Shown here: positions 3,706-61,664 of the stretch, piece after piece | Layout of the letters: each line of letters starts with the position of its first letter | How positions within the stretch are numbered: position 1 is the first letter of the stretch | Position numbers and translations under genes: made by a program | Notes under the pieces: model-generated | Told to the model about the DNA's origin: nothing | Seen by the model: the letters and a program-made list of their open reading frames with translations, nothing else | Database searches by the model: none | From: Patescibacteria group bacterium | GTDB lineage: Bacteria > Patescibacteriota > Microgenomatia > UBA10105 > UBA927 | Direction: 5' to 3' | Length of the DNA stretch: 64,000 nucleotides | NCBI GenBank assembly: GCA_023379025.1 | Contig: JAMCTH010000010.1 | Location: 9,088 to 73,087 of the forward strand

Positions 3706-4149
3706 ATGAATCGCGACGCATTGCTTGCTACACTTATCGGTCTCGGATTGGGGCTGGTCATCACGGGTGCGCTCATTCTTACTCCGTCCCTTCTCAGGCT
3801 TCTGCCGAAGATCACCCTGCCAAAAGTCGCGGTCTCCATGCCCAAATCCGCGAAGACTCCGGCCCCGAGACCGACACCCGCAGCATTCGGACTCACGGTT
3901 GACAGTCCGCTTCCGAACGCCATTGAACACAAGACGGATCTCATCGTATCCGGCACAACCGGTGCCGGTGCGACCGTCGTCGTCCAGGGACTGACGGATG
4001 ACGATGTGACCGTCGTCGGCAAAGACGGGAAGTACGTCGGGAAAATCACCCTCTCGGAAGGGAAAAACACCGTTACCGTCACGAGTTACGGGAAAGACAA
4101 ACAAAAGGGAACATCCGTCGTCGTGTACTATACGCCGGAATCGCTCTGA
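3706..4149 (+). CDS. membrane-anchored hypothetical protein with Ig-like/beta-rich ectodomain
   Basis: Track ORF 3697-4149 starts at GTG; ATG at 3706 (MNRDALLATLIGLGLGLVITGALIL) gives a TM helix followed by a Pro-rich linker and a T/V/G-rich beta domain. Confidence 0.6.
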   Translation: MNRDALLATLIGLGLGLVITGALILTPSLLRLLPKITLPKVAVSMPKSAKTPAPRPTPAAFGLTVDSPLPNAIEHKTDLIVSGTTGAGATVVVQGLTDDDVTVVGKDGKYVGKITLSEGKNTVTVTSYGKDKQKGTSVVVYYTPESL

Positions 4150-5406: not shown

Positions 5407-5435
5407 TTGACATGAATGTATTACTATGTTAATAT
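5407..5435 (+). promoter_or_regulatory. sigma70-type promoter (TTGACA-17 nt-TAATAT) in AT-rich palindromic region
   Basis: TTGACA at 5407-5412, 17-nt spacer, TAATAT at 5430-5435, embedded in AT-rich palindromes (TTAATATATTAA, TATTAATAGATTAGTATATTAA). The next plus-strand gene starts at 5820, implying a roughly 385-nt leader. Confidence 0.5.
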
Positions 5436-5819
5436 ATTAACGTATTAATAGATTAGTATATTAAAACTGTTTTCTATGATCAGCATCTTGACCTACCAGC
5501 TTCTTATATCGTTTCCATCCGGTTCTCCCGGTTTGTTTCTGCACGTCCACCATCATACGCACTAACACTCCTGCGCGTGGTTAAAGCGAGAAAAATCATT
5601 CCGCTTCCGTTTCCATACATCACCGTTGTCATCCGTTTTCTCCCTTTTCCCATTCGTAGTGACCTTTCATTAAGAAATGAAGTATCAAAAAATTCTTGAA
5701 TTATTACTACCGAATATGACACCCATGACAAGCGTGCAAAAAGAAATTGACCGATTCGAGGAGTTACGACCAGGCATCGTGGCAGCCTTCGGAAAAAGAT
5801 TGAAGACGTATTAAACCGT

Positions 5820-11772: not shown

Positions 11773-12081
11773 ATGAAATCCAATATCCATCCTCAGTGGT
11801 TTCCGAATGCCCGGGTGTCGTGTGCGTGTGGCAATACCTTTACGGTAGGCGCAACTAAGGAAGTCATCCAAGTCGAAATCTGCTCCAAGTGCCACCCATT
11901 TTTCACTGGCGAGATGAAATTCATCGATACGCTCGGGCGCGTCGAACGCTTCCAGCAGAAACAGCAGGTTGCCAAAGTCGCTGCGGCAAGTCTTGCGGAA
12001 AAGAAAAAGAAAAAGAAGGAACGTGAAGAACAGCTCCGCACCCCGAAATCCCTCAAAGAAATGCTCATGGGGACTCAATAG
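11773..12081 (+). CDS. rpmE: 50S ribosomal protein L31 with Lys/Glu-rich C-terminal extension
   Basis: Track ORF 11710-12081; conserved L31 start [10 protein letters not shown]...CACGNTF...[10 protein letters not shown] begins at ATG 11773. About 35-aa tail [15 protein letters not shown].... Confidence 0.88.
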
Positions 12082-12135
12082 CAACACGAGCAATACACGT
12101 TACTTCGTTGCTTCGTAAACTTCATTTGCTTTTTT

Positions 12136-12175
12136 CGAACTAACGAACTAACGAATGAACGAACTAACGATGAAT
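12136..12175 (+). repeat. five tandem 8-nt repeats (CGAACTAA x3, CGAATGAA, CGATGAAT) overlapping the release-factor start codon(s)
   Basis: ttCGAACTAACGAACTAACGAATGAACGAACTAACGATGAAT; both candidate ATGs (12155 and 12169) lie inside the array. Confidence 0.7.
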
Positions 12176-12871
12176 CAAGACGTAGCTATTCTCGAATTCC
12201 GTCCGGGTCCGGGCGGCGACGAGGCCCGAATCTGGGCTGGTGATCTCATGCGGATGTATCTGCGTTATGCCGGGCTCCAAGGCTGGAAAACCGAACAGAT
12301 CAGCGACAATTCTATCCGCATCCGGGGGCCGCAGGCATTTACCAAACTGCAATATGAAGCAGGCACCCACCGCGTGCAGCGTGTGCCGACGACGGAGCGC
12401 CAGGGCAGAATCCACACCTCAACCGCGACCGTAGCCGTCCTGCCGGAAATTCCGGAAACCGAGATTGTCATACGACCGGAAGATCTGGAATGGGATTTCT
12501 ACCGGAGCGGCGGCAAAGGCGGGCAGAACGTCAACAAAGTAAGCTCTGCCGTACGCCTTCGTCATAAGCCGACCGGCATCATCGTGACCGCCCAGACGGA
12601 GCGCGATCAGTTTCAGAACCGTCAGATGGCCATGTCCCTTCTTCGCGGCAAGCTCTGGGAACAGGAAGAAATCAAAAAATCTCAGATGCTAAGCGAACAG
12701 CGCAGTATTATCGGCCGGGGTATGCGGGCGGAAAAAATACGCACTTACAACTACCCGCAAAACCGCGTGACGGACCACCGGATCGGCAAGAGCTGGCATA
12801 CCCTCGAGGATATCGTCAACGGCAGGTTGCAGAACGTAACGGAGGCGTTAAGCTCCGGCAGCCTTGGCTAA
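12155..12871 (+). CDS. prfA: class-I peptide chain release factor (RF1-like) lacking N-terminal domain 1
   Basis: 233-238 aa. Aligns to E. coli RF1 from about residue 107 onward. Codon-recognition region RVQRVPTTERQGRIHTS (PxT-type, PTT) and GGQ motif SGGKGGQNVNKV. Only 73 nt separate it from rpmE, so there is no room for domain 1. Confidence 0.85.
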   Translation: MNELTMNQDVAILEFRPGPGGDEARIWAGDLMRMYLRYAGLQGWKTEQISDNSIRIRGPQAFTKLQYEAGTHRVQRVPTTERQGRIHTSTATVAVLPEIPETEIVIRPEDLEWDFYRSGGKGGQNVNKVSSAVRLRHKPTGIIVTAQTERDQFQNRQMAMSLLRGKLWEQEEIKKSQMLSEQRSIIGRGMRAEKIRTYNYPQNRVTDHRIGKSWHTLEDIVNGRLQNVTEALSSGSLG

Positions 12872-33539: not shown

Positions 33540-34370
33540 TTATCGGAGTAAATCCCACGAAACGGACTCACCGGAACCGATACGTCTGTATGCCGTCCCG
33601 CGCATAATATGGATGTTTCCCCGTCCCCTGATCTCCATCTGCTCCTCTACAATACCGACTATGCAGGCCGTCAGTTCATCAATGCCAAGGACCGTCACGT
33701 CAGGAGGCAGGAGAGCCCGCAACCGGCGGAAACGTTCTTTCCCCATCCAGCAACAGGTCGTGTCAAAATCCTCGCCCTCGGCGTTATCCCAGTGCGGGAC
33801 GATGGCCAGTGAAAATCCGTATCTTCCGAAAAAATTTAACCCGCGCATCCAGAAGGGGTCCATGCCGCACTTATAGATTTCATAGACGGGAAGTGCGTAT
33901 GCGCCGATCGCAACGGCTGAAGCAGACCCCAGAGAAAGGGTTGTACCGGAACGGTGTGCTTTCGTCATTTCCCGGTATACCGCGCTGTGGATAAGATGCC
34001 GTACGGTATAACTTGGCGATCCGGCACCGCAGTAGATATAGTCCTGATTGCGGAGAAGATATGCGATTTCCGGATCATTCGTGCTGTTCGGCCCGTCCTT
34101 TCTCCATGCCCGAATCCTCCTGACCCGGGGTTGATAGTTTCGGAGGTGATCCGTAAAAAACTTTTCCGTACGCTCCGGCCAGCTATGGAGTGCATTCACC
34201 TCAAACCCCGTTGGTGTCTCCAAGATCCCGATATTTACCGGAGGCATCAGTCCGGACACGCGAAACAGGTATTCATGGATAGCGCGACCGGTTGCCGTCA
34301 ATTCCCCTGAGCCGAAAAGCACAACTCTGCCGGGTCCATCCGGATGTTTGGATCGGGTTGTTGTCGTCAA
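33540..34370 (-). CDS. peptidase S51 / class I glutamine amidotransferase-like protein
   Basis: 276 aa; VVLFGSGELTATG and LGSASAV segments resemble the cyanophycinase/PepE (S51) fold. Family assignment tentative. Confidence 0.5.
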   Translation of the reverse strand: MTTTTRSKHPDGPGRVVLFGSGELTATGRAIHEYLFRVSGLMPPVNIGILETPTGFEVNALHSWPERTEKFFTDHLRNYQPRVRRIRAWRKDGPNSTNDPEIAYLLRNQDYIYCGAGSPSYTVRHLIHSAVYREMTKAHRSGTTLSLGSASAVAIGAYALPVYEIYKCGMDPFWMRGLNFFGRYGFSLAIVPHWDNAEGEDFDTTCCWMGKERFRRLRALLPPDVTVLGIDELTACIVGIVEEQMEIRGRGNIHIMRGTAYRRIGSGESVSWDLLR

Positions 34371-35857
34371 ATCGTCTTTTTTTTTACGCGGCTCCCCTGA
34401 GGCGTATCTTCGATGGTAAACCCCATTTCCTCCATCCGGGCCCGCACTTCATCCGCTTTCTGAAAATTGTTCGTTTTGCGGTATGCATCACGCTCTTTTT
34501 TGAGCACCGCTATTTCATCCGGCAAATCGCCTACCGGCTCCGGAGCCATGACGTTTCTGAGAGTAAGTCCCAAAACCTCGTCGAAATCGAGGATGAGATC
34601 GTATTTATCCTGCGACGGAATATTGGATTTGGCCACCTCCCGGGTGATCGCAAGAGCCTGCGGAACGTTGAGGTCGTTTTCAAGGGAAGCCCGGAACGCA
34701 GCCTGATAACCTTCGACTTTCGTCAGCTTTTCCTGGGACAGGGTCCTGCGCCTGGCGATCTGGGCCCGGAGATTACCGATCTGCGTACGCAGTTCCGTAA
34801 GGCTCCTTGCAGCCGCGTCAAGCGCCTCCCAGGAAAAGTTGAGGTAGGAGCGGTAGTGCGCCGTAAGATAGAGATACCGGAGCGCCATGGGATCGATACC
34901 GCGCTCTTCTATATCGCCCAGGCGGTAGAAATTGCCGCGGCTTTTGGACATTTTTTCGCCGTTTACCAGGATAAACTGGCCGTGGACCCAAAAACGCACA
35001 TACGGCGATTTGCCGCTCATACTTTCACTCTGGACGATCTCGTTGGTATGGTGAATCGGGATAAGGTCGACACCCCCGGTATGGATGTCTATCTGATCTC
35101 CGAGGTATTTCATCCCCATTGCCGAACACTCGATATGCCATCCGGGAAACCCCACACCCCACGGACTCTCCCACTCCATGTCGCGCCTCTTTGCTCCGGC
35201 AGGGTCAGACCTTGGATGATGAAGGTCTGACCCTTTCAAGATCTTTGGATAGGAAAATTTCCAGAGCGCAAAGTCCGTCGGATGTTTTTTCTCCGGGTTC
35301 ACTTCGACCCGTGCGCCGGCCTTCAGGTCCTCCCGGTTCTGCCCGGCTAACGCGCCGTAATTCTGGACTTTTGACGTGTCAAAATAGATGCCGTCCCCTA
35401 TGGAATAGGCAAACCCCTTCTTGAGAAGCACGGAAACCATCGCGATCTGCTCCGCAATATGTTCGGTCGGCTTGGGGCGGACGTCGGGATCGAGGAGATT
35501 GAGTTTCCGGCTGTCCGAAAGAAACGCTTCGGTATAAAACCTGGCGATATCCCATGCGGTTTTCCCCTCCCGTTTGGCACCTTTTTCCATCTTGTCCTCT
35601 CCGCTGTCGCTGTCAGAGGTGAGGTGCCCGACGTCGGTAATGTTCATCACAAACTTCGTGGTGTAGCCGAGATACCTGAGTGTCCGAACCAGGATGTCCG
35701 TCATGACGTAGGTGCGGAAATTGCCGATATGGGCATAGTCATAGACCGTCGGGCCGCAGGCATAAATCGTCACAAGGTCCTCCCGGAGGGGGGAAAACTC
35801 TTCGACCGTACGGCTTCGCGTGTTATAGAGACTGAGCATGGTTCTATTATGCCACAC
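34367..35857 (-). CDS. cysS: cysteinyl-tRNA synthetase
   Basis: 496 aa. CGPTVYDYAHIGN (HIGH region), Zn-binding Cys residues, KMSKSRGN (KMSKS). A later ATG (MLSLYNTRSR) may be the true start. Confidence 0.92.
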   Translation of the reverse strand: MWHNRTMLSLYNTRSRTVEEFSPLREDLVTIYACGPTVYDYAHIGNFRTYVMTDILVRTLRYLGYTTKFVMNITDVGHLTSDSDSGEDKMEKGAKREGKTAWDIARFYTEAFLSDSRKLNLLDPDVRPKPTEHIAEQIAMVSVLLKKGFAYSIGDGIYFDTSKVQNYGALAGQNREDLKAGARVEVNPEKKHPTDFALWKFSYPKILKGSDLHHPRSDPAGAKRRDMEWESPWGVGFPGWHIECSAMGMKYLGDQIDIHTGGVDLIPIHHTNEIVQSESMSGKSPYVRFWVHGQFILVNGEKMSKSRGNFYRLGDIEERGIDPMALRYLYLTAHYRSYLNFSWEALDAAARSLTELRTQIGNLRAQIARRRTLSQEKLTKVEGYQAAFRASLENDLNVPQALAITREVAKSNIPSQDKYDLILDFDEVLGLTLRNVMAPEPVGDLPDEIAVLKKERDAYRKTNNFQKADEVRARMEEMGFTIEDTPQGSRVKKKTI

Positions 35858-35942
35858 CAGGGGAAGACGGGGCCAGCACCGGAAGGGCAGGTAATCCTTT
35901 GGTTTCTGAGATCTGTGAATTGGAATTTGGGATTTACCCCCT

Positions 35943-36428
35943 CTAGTCCTGCCTCACGTTCCGGCTCATCTCGGCCGATGCCTTCTTGGCCCGGAGACCA
36001 TAGAGGTCGCCTCTTTTCCGTGCAAAACTCATTTTTGGGAGCGTCTGTTTCTTCTCCCTGACCTCCTGCTTTTCCGTCTGCATCAGCTTTTCCTGCTTCT
36101 CTTTCTGAAGCTGTTCCCAGACGGAAAGTTTCTTTTCCGGCGGATTATGCGCTCCGGAAAGATACTCGAGCGCGCTCCGCGCAATCGCCCGTTTGGCTCT
36201 GATATCTTTTTCCGCCATCACGCGGTCAACCGGCGTTTCCGGGGCATGAGCCTTCTCCCCCTGACCCGCCTGAGGCAGATTTCCCTGACCCTGCGTTTTC
36301 TTCCCGCCTCCGGAACCCAGGCTCTCGAGCGCCTTGCCGACAATATCTTTGGGGACCGATGCAGCCTGCTTGACTACGTCTTTCCCGATATCCTCAAATG
36401 ATCCGATAATCTGACGGGGTATTGCCAT
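35943..36428 (-). CDS. hypothetical protein (Lys/Glu/Gln-rich)
   Basis: 161-aa hydrophilic ORF; G-rich segment SLGSGGGKKTQGQGN; coiled-coil-like C-terminal half. Confidence 0.5.
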   Translation of the reverse strand: MAIPRQIIGSFEDIGKDVVKQAASVPKDIVGKALESLGSGGGKKTQGQGNLPQAGQGEKAHAPETPVDRVMAEKDIRAKRAIARSALEYLSGAHNPPEKKLSVWEQLQKEKQEKLMQTEKQEVREKKQTLPKMSFARKRGDLYGLRAKKASAEMSRNVRQD

Positions 36429-36429
36429 A

Positions 36430-36940
36430 GAATATAAATCTCAAATCTCAATGACCAATGACCAATGACCAAGTTAATATGATGACTTAATAATTATCAG
36501 TACTTACGCAGTTATGCTTCGAACGAGGCGCTCCTTAGCGCCGAAGTGAGAAGTTCTCACTTCGTTCGAACAATATCAACATGCGTAAGTCCTGAGGACT
36601 TACGCATAGCATATTGGTTTAGACGGTTGCACCGTCATTCTGGCAAGCGAGTCATCGAGCGCGTCCAGAATCAGATTCCGGAGTCGCTTACGCTCCCCGG
36701 AATGACGAACTGCGTAAGTCGTGAATTATACTCGCGCAAATTTTAATAAGTTCTTCATTCTCACTCAATAATCCATCTATCTGCTGACCGTATGATTTGT
36801 TGAATGAATATATGATTAATCCTATTTTCCGGTAAATCCCGGACAATTCCGACAACTGCAAGAACAAATGTAAATATTCGTCCTTTTAGGTCATATCGCC
36901 GGTTTTTATTGGTCATTGGGATTTAGGTTTTGTGATTTCT
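36430..36940. repeat. about 500-bp AT-rich structured non-coding island bounded by imperfect inverted repeats, with nested perfect palindromes (possible MITE or structured RNA)
   Basis: Left end aaatctcaaatctcaATGACCAATGACCAATGACCaa (36437-36472) against right end ttATTGGTCATTGGgatttaggttttgtgatttc (36907-36939). Internal hairpins at 36517-36570 (ttcgaacga...tcgttcgaa enclosing ggcgctccttagcgcc and gaagtgagaagttctcacttc) and 36581-36607 (atgcgtaagtcc-tga-ggacttacgcat). CTTACGCA/TGCGTAAG recurs at about 36508, 36584 and 36711. Confidence 0.55.
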
Positions 36941-37244
36941 AAATAAATCCCAGCTGTTCTTTGGCTTCTTTGCTCATCCGGTCCATAGTCCAGGGAGGCT
37001 CAAAGGTGAGATCAACTTCTACAGATTTGACTCCCGGAAGTTTTTCGAGTGCGTCTCGGATAGGAGTTGCGATAAGGTCAAAAAGCGGGCAGCCGATCGA
37101 AGTCAGCGTCATAAGTACCCGGACATTACCGCGCTTCTCATCGATCCCGATATCGTAGATAAGGCCGAGATCCACGATCGAGACGCCGATCTCCGGGTCA
37201 GGTATGGATTTGAGTGCATCGGAAATAGCTTGCTTTTGCAGCAT
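36939..37244 (-). CDS. DUF59/MIP18-family Fe-S cluster assembly protein (SufT/PaaD-like)
   Basis: Track ORF 36939-37307; likely start MLQKQAISDAL at 37244. DPEIGVSIVDLGLIYDI is the DUF59 signature. Confidence 0.75.
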   Translation of the reverse strand: MLQKQAISDALKSIPDPEIGVSIVDLGLIYDIGIDEKRGNVRVLMTLTSIGCPLFDLIATPIRDALEKLPGVKSVEVDLTFEPPWTMDRMSKEAKEQLGFI

Positions 37245-37315
37245 ATTAGATTTATTATACACGGCAAGATAGATTCCGGTACAATATATTTGTTTCTTGC
37301 CCCTCACAAAAAACG

Positions 37316-37870
37316 ATGAGTTTTTTCTTAGACATTTTTCGCCCGAAAAATACTATTACTGTTGTAGACTTTAATGGATTACAAGGTGTAGTCATGGGTA
37401 CCCCGGACCGATCTCCGGTTTGGGTCAAAAATACGGCCCAAAATCTTCAAATTGCGCGACGAGAAGGTGTCAGGCCTTTATGTTTTGCTGATGTTTTATC
37501 CCAAATTGAACCAGAACAACTCTCTATAATTGTCCTGTTTGATACACCACCAAATACTCCATTAACTGGTAATCATTGGAGGGTAGATTCGATCGATCAA
37601 CAAAATCAGACGGTAACTCTCCAGCACTGTAATGGGTGGGGCAATAGTGATCACTCTTGGGTCCAACCACTAGAAGCGCCTTATGACTGGCCTCTTTTTA
37701 GCGGTATAAGTGTACATCAATACAATTATGCAGGATTAGTTTTACCGCTTGTCGATGTCGCAAGACGCTATGATGAAGACTCGCCAGATATTCCATTTTT
37801 ATCACACAAAGAGAGTATTTTCTTTTCGAACGCGGAAGGTACCTTGACCGAACTTACCTACGAATCGTGA
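37316..37870 (+). CDS. hypothetical protein, paralog 1 of tandem pair
   Basis: 184 aa; shares WRVDSIDQQNQTVTLQHC / HQYNYAGLVLPLVDVA blocks with the next ORF. Low local GC (about 43 %). Confidence 0.55.
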   Translation: MSFFLDIFRPKNTITVVDFNGLQGVVMGTPDRSPVWVKNTAQNLQIARREGVRPLCFADVLSQIEPEQLSIIVLFDTPPNTPLTGNHWRVDSIDQQNQTVTLQHCNGWGNSDHSWVQPLEAPYDWPLFSGISVHQYNYAGLVLPLVDVARRYDEDSPDIPFLSHKESIFFSNAEGTLTELTYES

Positions 37871-37893
37871 TTCACACATGAACACGTGGTACA

Positions 37894-38451
37894 GTGTTAC
37901 CCATGAATAAAGATATCCGATTTGGCTCTCTCCATCTTTCACAGGATCAATTCCCATCGGATTTGCTACACACCATGTGGAGTTGGCAAAAATTATTCGA
38001 GGCAAACGGTACAAACCGTGCTGAAGCAATTGGCTTGGGTTATATCCCGCGGTCTATTGCCGAGGTGATTGCTGATATACCAGATACACACGATCTCTTA
38101 AACATGGTGCTGACAGATGGTGCGCCACGGGGTCGAAATTTTGCTCAATACTTCCGGATAGACACTATAAACGTCGAGGCTGAAACGATTACTCTCATCC
38201 ATTGCACGGAGGACGGCGTGCATGATCTTACAGAGTCGGGAGTGACCATCTCCGCGGATCGACGGATGTTTACCGGATATGCCATCCACCCTTATGAGAT
38301 GGACGGGACGCAGTACCCACTGTCGGAAATTGCCGCCATGGTCAGCGGTGATCACCTGGATATCGATGATGGAACTGTAACCATCGGGCCTGTAACTGTG
38401 TATGTCTCAAAACCAGAAGGATTGGTGGAACTTCCTCCGGAGGGATACTAA
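37894..38451 (+). CDS. hypothetical protein, paralog 2 of tandem pair
   Basis: 185 aa. FRIDTINVEAETITLIHC / HPYEMDGTQYPLSEIA blocks align with paralog 1 (xRIDxI-x5-TxTLxHC, HxYxxxGxxxPL). Confidence 0.55.
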   Translation: MLPMNKDIRFGSLHLSQDQFPSDLLHTMWSWQKLFEANGTNRAEAIGLGYIPRSIAEVIADIPDTHDLLNMVLTDGAPRGRNFAQYFRIDTINVEAETITLIHCTEDGVHDLTESGVTISADRRMFTGYAIHPYEMDGTQYPLSEIAAMVSGDHLDIDDGTVTIGPVTVYVSKPEGLVELPPEGY

Positions 38452-59744: not shown

Positions 59745-60372
59745 CCGGCGGTTCCAATCGTTTACGGACTACACCCCAAATAATGGATGCCACCGCTTCC
59801 ATATCCTTGGTGGCATCAACAACAACATACCGCTCATGATACTTTTTTGCAAGAGCCAAATACCCCCCATGAACCCGGAGATAAAAATCTTCCTCTTGCA
59901 CATCTAACCGGTCAATCTTCGTGTCGTTACTTCGCCGGCGCAGTCCGCTTTGGACGTCCATAAAAAGAAGTATGGTCAGATCCGGTACCGCGCCGTTTAC
60001 CGCAAGTGCGTTGAGTCTCAAAACAACATCCGGTCCGAGCCGGCGGCCGTATCCCTGATATGCAATGCTGCTGTCAAGATACCGGTCGGAAATAACTATG
60101 TTCCCGGCGGCCAGGGCGGGACCGATAACCTCACGTACATGCTGGGCGCGCGATGCGGCCATGAGATACGCTTCCGCGACAGGATCAAGGTCTACATTTT
60201 CCCGGCTATGGGTAATGGCACGGATCTCTTCACCGATACGCGTGCCTCCCGGCTCGCGGGTCACCACGGGGTCATACCCTTCTTCTTTGAGCCTGCCGGC
60301 AAGCGCAAGGGTCTGCGTCGATTTTCCCGATCCCTCACCGCCCTCGAATGTGATGAATAGCCCGTGTTTCAT
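59725..60372 (-). CDS. tmk: thymidylate (dTMP) kinase
   Basis: 215 aa; P-loop FEGGEGSGKST, DRYLDSSIAYQG (DRY/LID region). Confidence 0.9.
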   Translation of the reverse strand: MKHGLFITFEGGEGSGKSTQTLALAGRLKEEGYDPVVTREPGGTRIGEEIRAITHSRENVDLDPVAEAYLMAASRAQHVREVIGPALAAGNIVISDRYLDSSIAYQGYGRRLGPDVVLRLNALAVNGAVPDLTILLFMDVQSGLRRRSNDTKIDRLDVQEEDFYLRVHGGYLALAKKYHERYVVVDATKDMEAVASIIWGVVRKRLEPPDAKKNA

Positions 60373-60378
60373 ACAGTC

Positions 60379-61008
60379 CTAGTGTAATCCGGATGCTGGC
60401 AGAGAAGCAACCGCGGCGAGTATGTGTTCATGAATTTCGTCAATACCCGCTGATGCATCGATACGCGTGTGGGGAATATGACGGAGAACGTCCGCATAGG
60501 TCTTCCGTTTTTGAGAAAGAAGCTTAACCGATTCAAATGTGCCGATCGGTTCACCGGTCTTGGCATGCCGCAGGTTGATCCTCGTGAGGGCCCGGTCCGG
60601 AGCCATATCAAACCAGAAAAAAAGATCGGGTGACGGTTCGAATGCGGAAAATGCATCGCGTATCCGGTCACGTTCCTTTGTCGTTTTCCCCTGATAGACA
60701 AGTGCGCTCACCCAATTGCGGAGCGATATCACCCATGTACCACGGGCAAGCGCCGGCTCAAGCGTTTTCCTGACCATGCTTTCCCGGTCCGCAAGGAGAA
60801 GGTATAACTCACAGAGATGATCAATCTTTCTCGATCGCCTCCAGGCGTGAAGAACGGTCTTGAGTTCCGGAGACGGGTGGTACAGGAGTATGGCCGGCTG
60901 ATGACGGGTTTTGAGATGCCGTACCAAAAGTTTGCCCTGGGTTTCTTTGCCCGTCCCCGATATCCCTTCAAACACGATATAGTTCCCCCGGTGCATAGTG
61001 GCGTTCAC
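60379..61008 (-). CDS. thymidylate-kinase-like paralog
   Basis: 209 aa; P-loop FEGISGTGKETQ, LRNWVSALVYQG in place of DRY...AYQG; tandem to tmk. Confidence 0.75.
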   Translation of the reverse strand: MNATMHRGNYIVFEGISGTGKETQGKLLVRHLKTRHQPAILLYHPSPELKTVLHAWRRSRKIDHLCELYLLLADRESMVRKTLEPALARGTWVISLRNWVSALVYQGKTTKERDRIRDAFSAFEPSPDLFFWFDMAPDRALTRINLRHAKTGEPIGTFESVKLLSQKRKTYADVLRHIPHTRIDASAGIDEIHEHILAAVASLPASGLH

Positions 61009-61664
61009 CTCCCGATAAGGACGTCCTTTAGGGCATAGACGGTCGGAAGCGTGATGTCGGCAACATCGCTCGGCGTCTCCGACCAGACGAGGCAGGTATG
61101 CATCCCAAGGGCGCGGGCCGGCGCAAGGTCCACGGCGGGCCGGTCGCCGATCATCATATGGGAGGGCGCCGGAAGACCGGTATGTTTCATGATATACCGG
61201 AAACCCTCAACTGACGGTTTTGTCACCCCGACGGTTTCCGATGTCACCATAAGTTCAAAGGTTTCTTTCGGAATACCAAGAACGGCAAGTGTCTCGATGT
61301 GCCTTGCGATCACGCCGTTGGCGAGGATCATGTGGCGGTACCCGTGAAGCGAGCGGAACAGTGAAATGAGCTTGGGATCGCGTTTCAGGAAGTCGCGCCG
61401 GTCGAAATACCGTTCCATTTCAACGGCAGACTCGGCGACGGTCTGACCCGTCAGTACGGAAACGGTTTCCGTCGCACTTTGGATCGTCACTTTATACCGC
61501 GCTTTGAATTCACGGTCGGTCCGGTCGTAGTCCCACCCCGTATGAGCCATGATCGTTGTATATTCCGCCTGCCGCACCGCGGCAAAAAGCGCGGGATTCG
61601 GCCGGTAGAATGTACCGTCAAAATCCCATATGAGAACCCGTACGTCGGAAAACTGGGCATTCAT
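61005..61664 (-). CDS. HAD-family hydrolase, probable (deoxy)nucleotidase
   Basis: Track ORF 61005-61826 would overlap the upstream gene by 136 nt. Internal start MNAQFSDVRVLIWDFDGTFY at 61664 gives motif I DFDGT, later TKPS and MIGDR (motif IV). Confidence 0.7.
   Translation of the reverse strand: MNAQFSDVRVLIWDFDGTFYRPNPALFAAVRQAEYTTIMAHTGWDYDRTDREFKARYKVTIQSATETVSVLTGQTVAESAVEMERYFDRRDFLKRDPKLISLFRSLHGYRHMILANGVIARHIETLAVLGIPKETFELMVTSETVGVTKPSVEGFRYIMKHTGLPAPSHMMIGDRPAVDLAPARALGMHTCLVWSETPSDVADITLPTVYALKDVLIGR

Follow-up and report, generated by a model that had tools for sequence, protein, structure and literature searches.

The window analysed here, a 64,000-nucleotide (nt) stretch of a Patescibacteria contig, carries at 36429-36938 a 510-nt gap, or island, that separates two minus-strand genes and holds no intact open reading frame (ORF). 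It lies in the recR-DUF59-161aa-cysS operon of a Gottesmanbacteria-like bacterium of the candidate phyla radiation (CPR), and we consider it very probable that it is made up of two nested selfish elements, namely a decayed PF05635 cassette and, within it, a two-module MITE (miniature transposable element with inverted repeats) of the ISPlag1 type. The boundaries of these elements, their homology, the target-site duplication and the family-wide distribution of the MITE ends are seen directly in the data. Read along the minus strand, from the 5'-side to the 3'-side neighbour, the locus comprises the following features:

36939-37307, minus strand: DUF59/FeS_assembly_P core gene (Pfam PF01883, E=9.8e-24), the 5'-side neighbour, with its stop codon TAG at 36939-36941; given for context only
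36908-36938, minus strand: 5' arm of the cassette, AAATCACAAAACCTAAATCCCA then ATGACCAAT, with the cassette start codon (36914-36916) inside the arm
36730-36916, minus strand: PF05635 (23S_rRNA_IVP, four-helix bundle) pseudogene, made of the N-terminal ~44 codons, a 149-nt internal deletion and frameshift near 36780/36781, and then the C-terminal helix IDGLLSENEELIKICASII
36724-36729: right copy of the target-site duplication, AATTAT on the plus strand, identical to the left copy and abutting the MITE end
36498-36723, no strand assigned: composite MITE of 226 bp with outer ends CAGTACTTACGCA (36498-36510) and TGCGTAAGTCGTG (36711-36723)
36594-36723: module B of the MITE, 130 bp, with inner end GAGGACTTACGCA (36594-36606) and an interior GTCATTCYGG...CCRGAATGAC double hairpin that includes a 39-mer at 36634-36672
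36498-36594: module A of the MITE, 97 bp, with two perfect hairpins inside a TTCGAACGA/TCGTTCGAA stem and inner end TGCGTAAGTCCTG (36582-36594)
36492-36497: left copy of the target-site duplication, AATTAT
36474-36497, minus strand: last eight cassette-gene codons, which the MITE has displaced (ATA ATT ATT AAG TCA TCA TAT TAA), their first six bases being the left duplication copy
36429-36473, minus strand: 3' arm of the cassette, C(TTGGTCA)x3 TTGAGATTTGAGATTTATATTCT, reaching the ATG of the 161-aa gene
35943-36428, minus strand: 161-aa core gene of unknown function, the 3'-side neighbour, followed by cysS at 34367-35857; given for context only

The 161-aa protein has 208 homologues, mostly from Candidatus Gottesmanbacteria and other Patescibacteria, and a protein identical to it is named 'hypothetical protein M1555_05125 [Patescibacteria group bacterium]'. 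The gene order recR-DUF59-157/159aa-cysS is kept in four relatives with long contigs (loci L004, L006, L008 and L010), and DUF59 is separated from the gene behind it by a single nucleotide in L004 and by 13 nt in L010. Given that the two genes are nearly contiguous at the same junction in these relatives, the 510-nt island is an insertion; its GC content of 0.39-0.47 compares with ~0.55 in the flanks. In L006 the gap (3877-4000) consists of 124 ORF-less nucleotides with solely an inverted pair of low-complexity 'word' repeats, and in L008 (3522-4000) ~480 nt hold an intact 118-aa PF05635 gene between 35-nt inverted word repeats. The latter gene is ~32% identical to the window remnant, and its word arms differ too. 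From these comparisons the near-contiguity is the ancestral state and the DUF59/161aa junction a recurrent landing place, the differences between L006 and L008 showing gain, loss or replacement at one and the same junction.

A 51-aa ORF on the minus strand (36764-36916) begins right behind the DUF59 stop codon. A phmmer search with it against 1.84e9 representative proteins recovered three matches (E=1.7e-7 to 1.7e-4), two of which are PF05635 proteins (P0122 and P0123); P0122 was matched at E=6.9e-5 and is itself assigned to PF05635 by Pfam at E=1.8e-16. With the intact PF05635 protein of locus L014 as the query, tblastn aligned residues 1-43 to the window at 66% identity (E=6.5e-14) and residues 81-114 at 50% identity (E=2.3e-5) in another frame, which reads IDGLLSENEELIKICASII and matches the P0122 C-terminus IDVISQENEELIRIFASII. 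Since the homology is split into two frames with an internal deletion and a frameshift near 36780, the cassette gene is a pseudogene, and its restored ORF of 211 nt as compared with 360 nt in L014 implies a loss of 149 nt. It should be noted that a MAFFT alignment of the MITE-less island with intact cassettes misplaced the 3' part owing to this deletion, and the pseudogene junction was placed by eye and by tblastn. The original prediction, made from the letters of this DNA alone, had described a non-coding island lacking a credible ORF; there is indeed no intact one, but a PF05635 pseudogene fills the right third of the island. Its fallback, a decayed gene remnant, likewise describes the outer cassette gene and misses the MITE that is also present.

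P0122-like genes are located between rpmE and the release-factor (RF) gene in many Gottesmanbacteria, where the architecture of the intact cassette can be read. In L014 the rpmE stop codon is followed by CACGCCTCAAATCACAAATCTCAAATCACA-ATG, and the stop codon of the cassette gene by TTGGTCATTGAGATTTGTGATTTGAGATTTGTCCT-ATG of the next gene; the cassettes of L017 and L012 are built alike with other words. The type of 5' arm seen in the window, with the ATG embedded in it, recurs in L014, L017 and L020, and the 3' arms of L017 and L020 are similar to that of L014. The window reads TAG-AAATCACAAAACCTAAATCCCA-ATGACCAAT... at one end and ...C(TTGGTCA)x3-TTGAGATTTGAGATTTATATTCT-ATG at the other, and the intact cassettes at the rpmE/RF junction abut the flanking stop and start codons as tightly as this one does. 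Cassette sizes range from 420 to 505 nt, with ~430 nt for the restored window cassette and 425 nt for L014.

These arms account for the heptamers that the original prediction took for the terminal inverted repeats of the whole island. The CAATGAC run is a tandem repeat of 3.4 copies at 36449-36472 with a partner, ATTGGTCATTGG, at 36908-36919, and it belongs to an outer imperfect inverted repeat of 34 nt with 76% complementarity (36433-36466 / 36908-36941). The inverted repeat is thus real, but because intact PF05635 genes at a different locus lie between the same arms, it belongs to the cassette and does not mark transposon ends. The heptamer is tripled in the window relative to the homologous cassettes, and the run is a local triplication of TTGGTCA that would pair with the cassette start region. 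The predicted arm duplex has an energy of -24 to -34 kcal/mol, and termini are likewise complementary in L006, L008, L012, L014, L017 and L020. In a cross-duplex matrix the cognate arms were generally the best partners within a word type (L012 -41.2, L008 -32.4 and L006 -29.6 kcal/mol), most foreign pairings scoring ~-10 to -25 kcal/mol.

The window also has its own rpmE (11773-12075, plus strand) and release-factor gene (12170-12865, plus strand), and the gap between them (12076-12169) is occupied by an ORF-less word-repeat hairpin of mutually inverted 8-nt words, CGTTACTT in 2.4 copies and CGAACTAA in 4.4 copies. Gottesmanbacteria relatives carry an intact PF05635 cassette at this same junction, and the hairpin has the appearance of a solo stem or of an IVS-like element without an ORF (IVS, intervening sequence).

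The inner layer is delimited by the 13-nt sequence CAGGACTTACGCA, to which each outer end, CAGTACTTACGCA and CACGACTTACGCA (the reverse complement of the right end), matches at 12 of 13 positions, and the inner ends at 13 and 12 of 13. The octamer CTTACGCA, which had been counted three times, occurs four times as part of this 13-17-nt unit, in the order -> <- -> <- (36498-36510, 36582-36594, 36594-36606 and 36711-36723). Excision of the core with one AATTAT yields GCG AGT ATA ATT ATT AAG TCA TCA TAT TAA, that is ASIIIKSSY and a stop, then C, then TTGGTCATTG. This restored stretch is collinear with L014 (ASIIIKSKS and a stop, then TTGGTCATTG) and with the end of P0122 (ASIIIKSNSRNL and a stop). 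Given that excision restores the C-terminus of the cassette gene, the boundaries of the MITE are fixed independently of its repeats.

The 27-nt palindrome at 36581-36607 is formed by the inner ends of modules A and B, abutted back to back and sharing G36594. Neither module has a target duplication of its own, and because only the pair is flanked by one, A and B were inserted as a single unit. The predicted minimum free energy (MFE) of module A is -45.6 kcal/mol, or -0.47 kcal/mol per nt, and that of module B -0.41 per nt, close to a mean of -0.39 in the wider family of elements. No transposase is encoded (tblastn with the ISPlag1 transposase found no match in the window), and the sole ORF in the MITE is a 66-aa chance ORF. 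From its ends, its duplication, the restored target and its small non-coding size, the core appears to be a MITE of the ISPlag1/IS701 terminal-repeat group. The earlier suggestion of a MITE was therefore correct in that a non-autonomous element is present, and wrong in its extent, since the element covers only 36498-36723, has copies of CAGGACTTACGCA as its ends and is flanked by its own AATTAT duplication.

The hairpins that first drew attention to the island all exist as originally described, together with the stem that encloses two of them:

36527-36542: perfect hairpin GGCGCT-CCTT-AGCGCC
36542-36564: perfect hairpin CGAAGTGAGAA-G-TTCTCACTTCG
36581-36607: perfect hairpin ATGCGTAAGTCC-TGA-GGACTTACGCAT, the 27-nt palindrome
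36518-36526 / 36562-36570: enclosing stem TTCGAACGA / TCGTTCGAA (ttcgaacga/tcgttcgaa)

The description of the island as highly structured was borne out by folding of both strands, with z ~-10 against shuffled sequences for the whole island on either strand. For the core (36490-36730) the MFE is -108.9 kcal/mol on the plus and -110.2 kcal/mol on the minus strand, as compared with ~-64 +/- 4.4 in shuffles (z=-10.5 and -10.1, respectively). The stems are all Watson-Crick paired, the loops span 1-4 nt and the two strands fold equally well. Strand-equal folding and stems of Watson-Crick pairs only already point to symmetry at the DNA level and not to an evolved RNA. Searches of 35800-37600 with Rfam 15 on both strands gave no match at E<=10, and ARAGORN found no tRNA or tmRNA at the island. 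At the gathering threshold the sole Rfam match in the whole window was the glmS ribozyme/riboswitch (RF00234, 62493-62716, 51.3 bits, E=5.9e-9), far from the island. The island is not a new RNA gene, and its extreme predicted folding is a by-product of the MITE terminal repeats, the back-to-back inner ends, the hairpin-rich interiors and the cassette arms.

The distribution of CAGGACTTACGCA-ended elements was surveyed with one genome per species (596 Gb) and the pattern GACTTACGCA-N(90-120)-TGCGTAAGTC, which has 20 specified bases. At least 120 loci were recovered as against ~17 expected by chance on our own estimate. Among the matches listed, the hosts include Cyanobacteria (Nostoc, Calothrix, Okeania and Trichodesmium), many Poribacteria, Anaerolineae, Beggiatoa-like and other gammaproteobacteria, and Methanosarcina, and also members of the CPR, namely Kuenenbacteria (L043), Berkelbacteria (L055) and Parcubacteria (L103). 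The three unspecified bases beyond each 10-mer are Y-A-G / C-T-R in ~90-99% of elements. A perfect 5-bp duplication flanks 83 of the 123 scorable elements, six more have 6 bp and two have 7 bp, and the targets are AT-rich. The interiors are hairpin-rich throughout (mean -0.39 kcal/mol/nt) and unrelated between lineages; BLAST of the window core against all family loci detected no interior similarity.

Tandem heptamers are present in several family interiors (e.g. runs of GGTGTAG and GTCAAGG in L027, L044, L059 and L066), and those of Poribacteria contain GGGGG/CCCCC hairpins. A scan of IMG/VR viral contigs for paired MITE ends retrieved four contigs (L149-L152) with ends 60-90 nt apart, and phages may help to spread the family.

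The same terminal sequence is published for ISPlag1 of Planktothrix, an insertion sequence (IS) with a 29-bp end, CAGGACTTACGCAAGCACGCTATATATAG, and a 337-aa transposase of the IS701 group (PMC2464740). We confirmed these ends on the Planktothrix plasmid NZ_LR882937.1, where a 1306-bp element (60029-61334) is framed by CAGGACTTACGCAAGC...GCCTGCGTAAGTCCTG and its coding sequence is annotated as 'IS701-like element ISPlag1 family transposase', with Pfam matches to DDE_5 and DDE_Tnp_1. The same plasmid also carries a non-autonomous copy, the transposase-bearing copy lying in its second half. At Planktothrix plasmid locus L148 (10019-11344 and 17226-18055), a full ISPlag1 and an 810-bp derivative stand 7 kb apart, and the left flank of the former (..AATTAGA) is identical to the right flank of the latter. 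This shared flank suggests that recombination between copies may have split a target duplication. A search for an autonomous IS among the at least 120 genome loci, with ends paired 0.7-3 kb apart and with solo ends, encountered only host genes between neighbouring MITEs.

Copies of module B were sought in metagenomes with a 21-mer from it, which drew in two real relatives (L144 and L145) and two further matches that are chance hits in GC-rich coding sequence. L145 holds a module B copy with degenerate ends, unrelated genes on either side and an interior ~93% identical to that of the window, with a compensatory C-G to T-A change in one of the hairpins. The 39-mer at 36634-36672, a hairpin sequence GTCATTCTGGCAAGCGAGTCATCGAGCGCGTCCAGAATC (GTCATTCTGG...CCAGAATC), is 100% identical in the window, L144 (12505-12543) and L145 (around 1383-1403), which represent three different organisms and contexts, whereas the sequences on either side of it have diverged; in L144 it comes after a nadB-like gene, and on that side no MITE end can be made out. 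The 39-nt hairpin may be an independently spreading unit akin to repetitive extragenic palindromes (REP), and the CPR loci L055 and L103 share the module B layout of GTCATT..AATGAC hairpins. In Logan assemblies of two SRA runs, contigs L001 and L002 end at 36663 and L003 starts at 36643, with a 21-nt overlap. A k=31 de Bruijn graph leaves exactly these ends at a 39-nt exact repeat with more than one context, which implies two or more contexts of the 39-mer in the source samples. This indicates, indirectly, that the element is repeated in the source community at least in this part. Scans of viral contigs with either palindrome (27 and 23 nt) and with the 21-mer gave 0 matches each. Additional copies, which the original prediction had proposed as a check on its transposon, are absent from the 64-kb window and are represented elsewhere by the module B copy of L145 and the multiple contexts of the 39-mer.

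Comparison with known systems places both layers. The inner one resembles the 197-bp ISPlag1 remnants of Planktothrix (Christiansen et al. 2008, PMC2464740). With such ISPlag1 MITEs and deletion derivatives it shares the 13-nt end CAGGACTTACGCA, the small, non-coding and hairpin-rich make-up, the AT-rich target, the short duplication and the lack of a transposase of its own. It differs from them in its CPR host, in an interior unrelated to that of ISPlag1, in being a head-to-tail pair of two different modules that abut by their inner ends and moved as one, and in having no partner IS in the window or the fetched loci. The cyanobacterial MITE 'Nezha' may belong to the same family. As in REP palindromes and bacterial interspersed mosaic elements (BIME), the 39-nt hairpin recurs identically in unrelated contexts (L144 and L145) and similar GTCATT..AATGAC hairpins fill other CPR MITEs (L055 and L103); unlike in those systems, the window hairpin sits inside a transposon with terminal repeats, and there is no RAYT/TnpA-REP gene nearby. 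Small dispersed repeats nested in cyanobacterial MITEs were reportedly described by Elhai and colleagues in 2008.

For the outer layer, the closest parallel is provided by the ORF-bearing IVS in the 23S rRNA of Coxiella and Leptospira, whose product is S23p (PF05635) (Warrier et al. 2016, PMC4990558). The Coxiella IVS spans 428-444 nt, has a 28-bp terminal stem and an S23p ORF, and is cut by RNase III (PMC4990558). The cassette is alike in having a PF05635 ORF in the loop, a size of ~430 nt, complementary termini of ~28-34 bp and an ORF start at the 5' end. It is unlike them in lying at a protein-gene stop/start junction instead of helix 9, 25 or 45 of the 23S rRNA, in having arms of short tandem 'words' that differ between cassettes, and in that its ORF is here a pseudogene. 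No rRNA is present in the 64-kb window, and the cassette resembles an IVS without being an rRNA IVS.

Several other explanations of the island were weighed. That the whole of 36430-36940 is a single MITE with the CAATGAC/TTGGTCA heptamer runs as terminal inverted repeats would fit the 34-nt, 76% complementary outer arms, the insertion relative to L004 and L010, and a 7-10-nt direct repeat (ATAAATCTCA / ATAAATCCCA) near both ends. However, that direct repeat overlaps the DUF59 coding sequence, so that excision between its copies would remove the DUF59 stop codon, and the same arms flank intact PF05635 genes elsewhere with the start codon within the 5' arm, which argues for a gene cassette and not a non-coding element. 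As the homologous cassettes also lack a target duplication, and the true transposon ends with their duplication are internal, we regard a single all-encompassing MITE as extremely unlikely. The other possibility raised at the outset, a large structured non-coding RNA, or its extension to a cis-regulatory leader of the 161-aa gene and cysS with c1:c4 and c1:c3 pairings of the repeat copies acting as a switch, could draw on the folding z of ~-10 on both strands, on the two mutually exclusive pairings that the four repeat copies permit, on the position upstream of an aminoacyl-tRNA synthetase operon and on the single compensatory change between the window and L145. This too is highly unlikely, since Rfam is silent even at E<=10, relatives have no such sequence at the syntenic site, L145 has module B between unrelated genes, and the repeats serve as ends in a transposon family of which at least 89 of 123 elements carry duplications and the interiors are unrelated; the all-Watson-Crick stems, loops of 1-4 nt and strand-equal folding speak against it as well.

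The -> <- -> <- layout of the 13-17-nt sites and the breaks of the Logan assemblies inside segment B in two samples could alternatively reflect a DNA inversion switch of the inverton or shufflon kind, in which a recombinase flips segments A and/or B and thereby controls downstream genes. This is scarcely credible: the neighbourhood has no recombinase gene, the contig ends fit a shared 39-mer repeat and not an inversion joint at the repeats, and the sites are transposon ends with target duplications. A milder departure keeps the nested origin and adds co-option: behind DUF59 the hairpin stack would serve as a terminator or an insulator, and the 161-aa gene and cysS would have gained a new promoter in the 3' arm. 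The 27-nt palindrome was flagged as terminator-like, with a T-rich tract behind it on the minus strand, TTGGTC-16 nt-TATATT, read from the sequence, stands right before the ATG, and a 510-nt insert between genes that are nearly contiguous in relatives must somehow be tolerated. These are consensus matches only, and a promoter scan called no site between the MITE and the ATG; hence we consider co-option unlikely. Retron msr/msd, a diversity-generating retroelement (DGR) template or spacer, integron attC sites, IS200/605 ends and group II intron remnants were dropped as candidates for lack of a partner gene or motif.

Some observations weigh against a nest of a cassette and an ISPlag1-type MITE. 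In the other 63.5 kb of the window neither the MITE nor its ends recur, no copy of the module A interior was found in the scans, including those of viral contigs and family loci, and ~0.9 Mb of family loci hold no other dimer with abutted ends. The duplication measures 6 bp as against the family mode of 5 bp. No ISPlag1-like transposase was detected in the window or in 130 fetched loci, so that mobility in this genome is putative. On the side of the cassette, stop-bridged translations of the pseudogene remnant had no Pfam match, so that the homology is taken from phmmer and tblastn against close relatives, and a check for RNA-level pairing found no consistent G-U strand bias in the arms.

A few further features of the window were noted. 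The low-GC segment to ~38.45 kb, of which the island had been called the left edge, is not continuous with it, the conserved DUF59 gene lying between the two. It comprises two tandem paralogous ORFs (37316-38451) on the strand opposite to the operon, of 184 and 185 aa, with 29% identity to each other (E=9e-12) and no Pfam or PADLOC match. The pair sits between recR and DUF59, which adjoin each other in L004, L006 and L008, and is a second, separate accessory insertion. A tRNA-Leu(CAA) is located at 1452-1540, and an AT-rich palindromic tandem repeat at 5415-5464 consists of AATATATT in six copies, with a 24-nt unit in two copies.

Under the nested reading, a ~430-nt cassette of the IVS type would first have inserted at the junction of the DUF59 stop and the 161-aa start. 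It would have consisted of a PF05635 gene framed by two ~30-nt, mutually pairing arms of short 'word' repeats, the 5' arm holding the start codon of the gene itself (CAATGACCAAT) and the 3' arm (TTGGTCATTGAGATTTG...) reaching the ATG of the next gene. The cassette gene would later have lost 149 nt and died. In a second step the 226-bp MITE would have inserted at the end of the cassette gene, within its last codons, duplicating 6 bp (AATTAT), probably moved by an ISPlag1/IS701-family DDE transposase acting in trans, as suggested by the shared ends and the length of the duplication. Members of this family typically generate 5-bp duplications in AT-rich targets. By analogy with rRNA IVS, the cassette arms may act as an RNA stem cleaved by RNase III, and we also infer that the MITE and cassette could affect expression of the downstream genes.

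Both elements belong to known kinds, and what is more unusual is the recurrence of IVS-type cassettes or empty stems at the stop/start junctions of operons. One could go further and see in the outer layer an unrecognised class of mobile element, in which IVS-type cassettes reside in mRNA operons and are cut out of the polycistronic transcript by RNase III at a stem that their arms form. In favour of this are PF05635 genes or ORF-less hairpins framed by self-complementary word-repeat arms with the start codon in the stem, the exact stop/start placement at both DUF59/161aa and rpmE/RF, and the gain, loss and replacement of such units in related Gottesmanbacteria. We put it forward tentatively and think it doubtful as it stands. 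If true, a four-helix-bundle protein, a relative of the DGR protein Avd, would serve the spread or maintenance of these cassettes, and of the two junctions in the window one would hold a dead cassette (36429-36938) and the other a solo stem (12076-12169).

The island also holds a caution for genome scans, in that z=-10, perfect palindromes and alternative pairings can mimic a novel riboregulator, and that here cassette arms, transposon ends and their abutment explain all of them. The family of MITEs with CAGGACTTACGCA ends, first met in cyanobacterial ISPlag1, reaches the small genomes of the CPR as well as Poribacteria, Chloroflexi, gammaproteobacteria and Methanosarcina, with interiors that vary from lineage to lineage. 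A little-described feature of reduced genomes is that the operon junctions of Gottesmanbacteria repeatedly host IVS-like PF05635 cassettes or empty stems.

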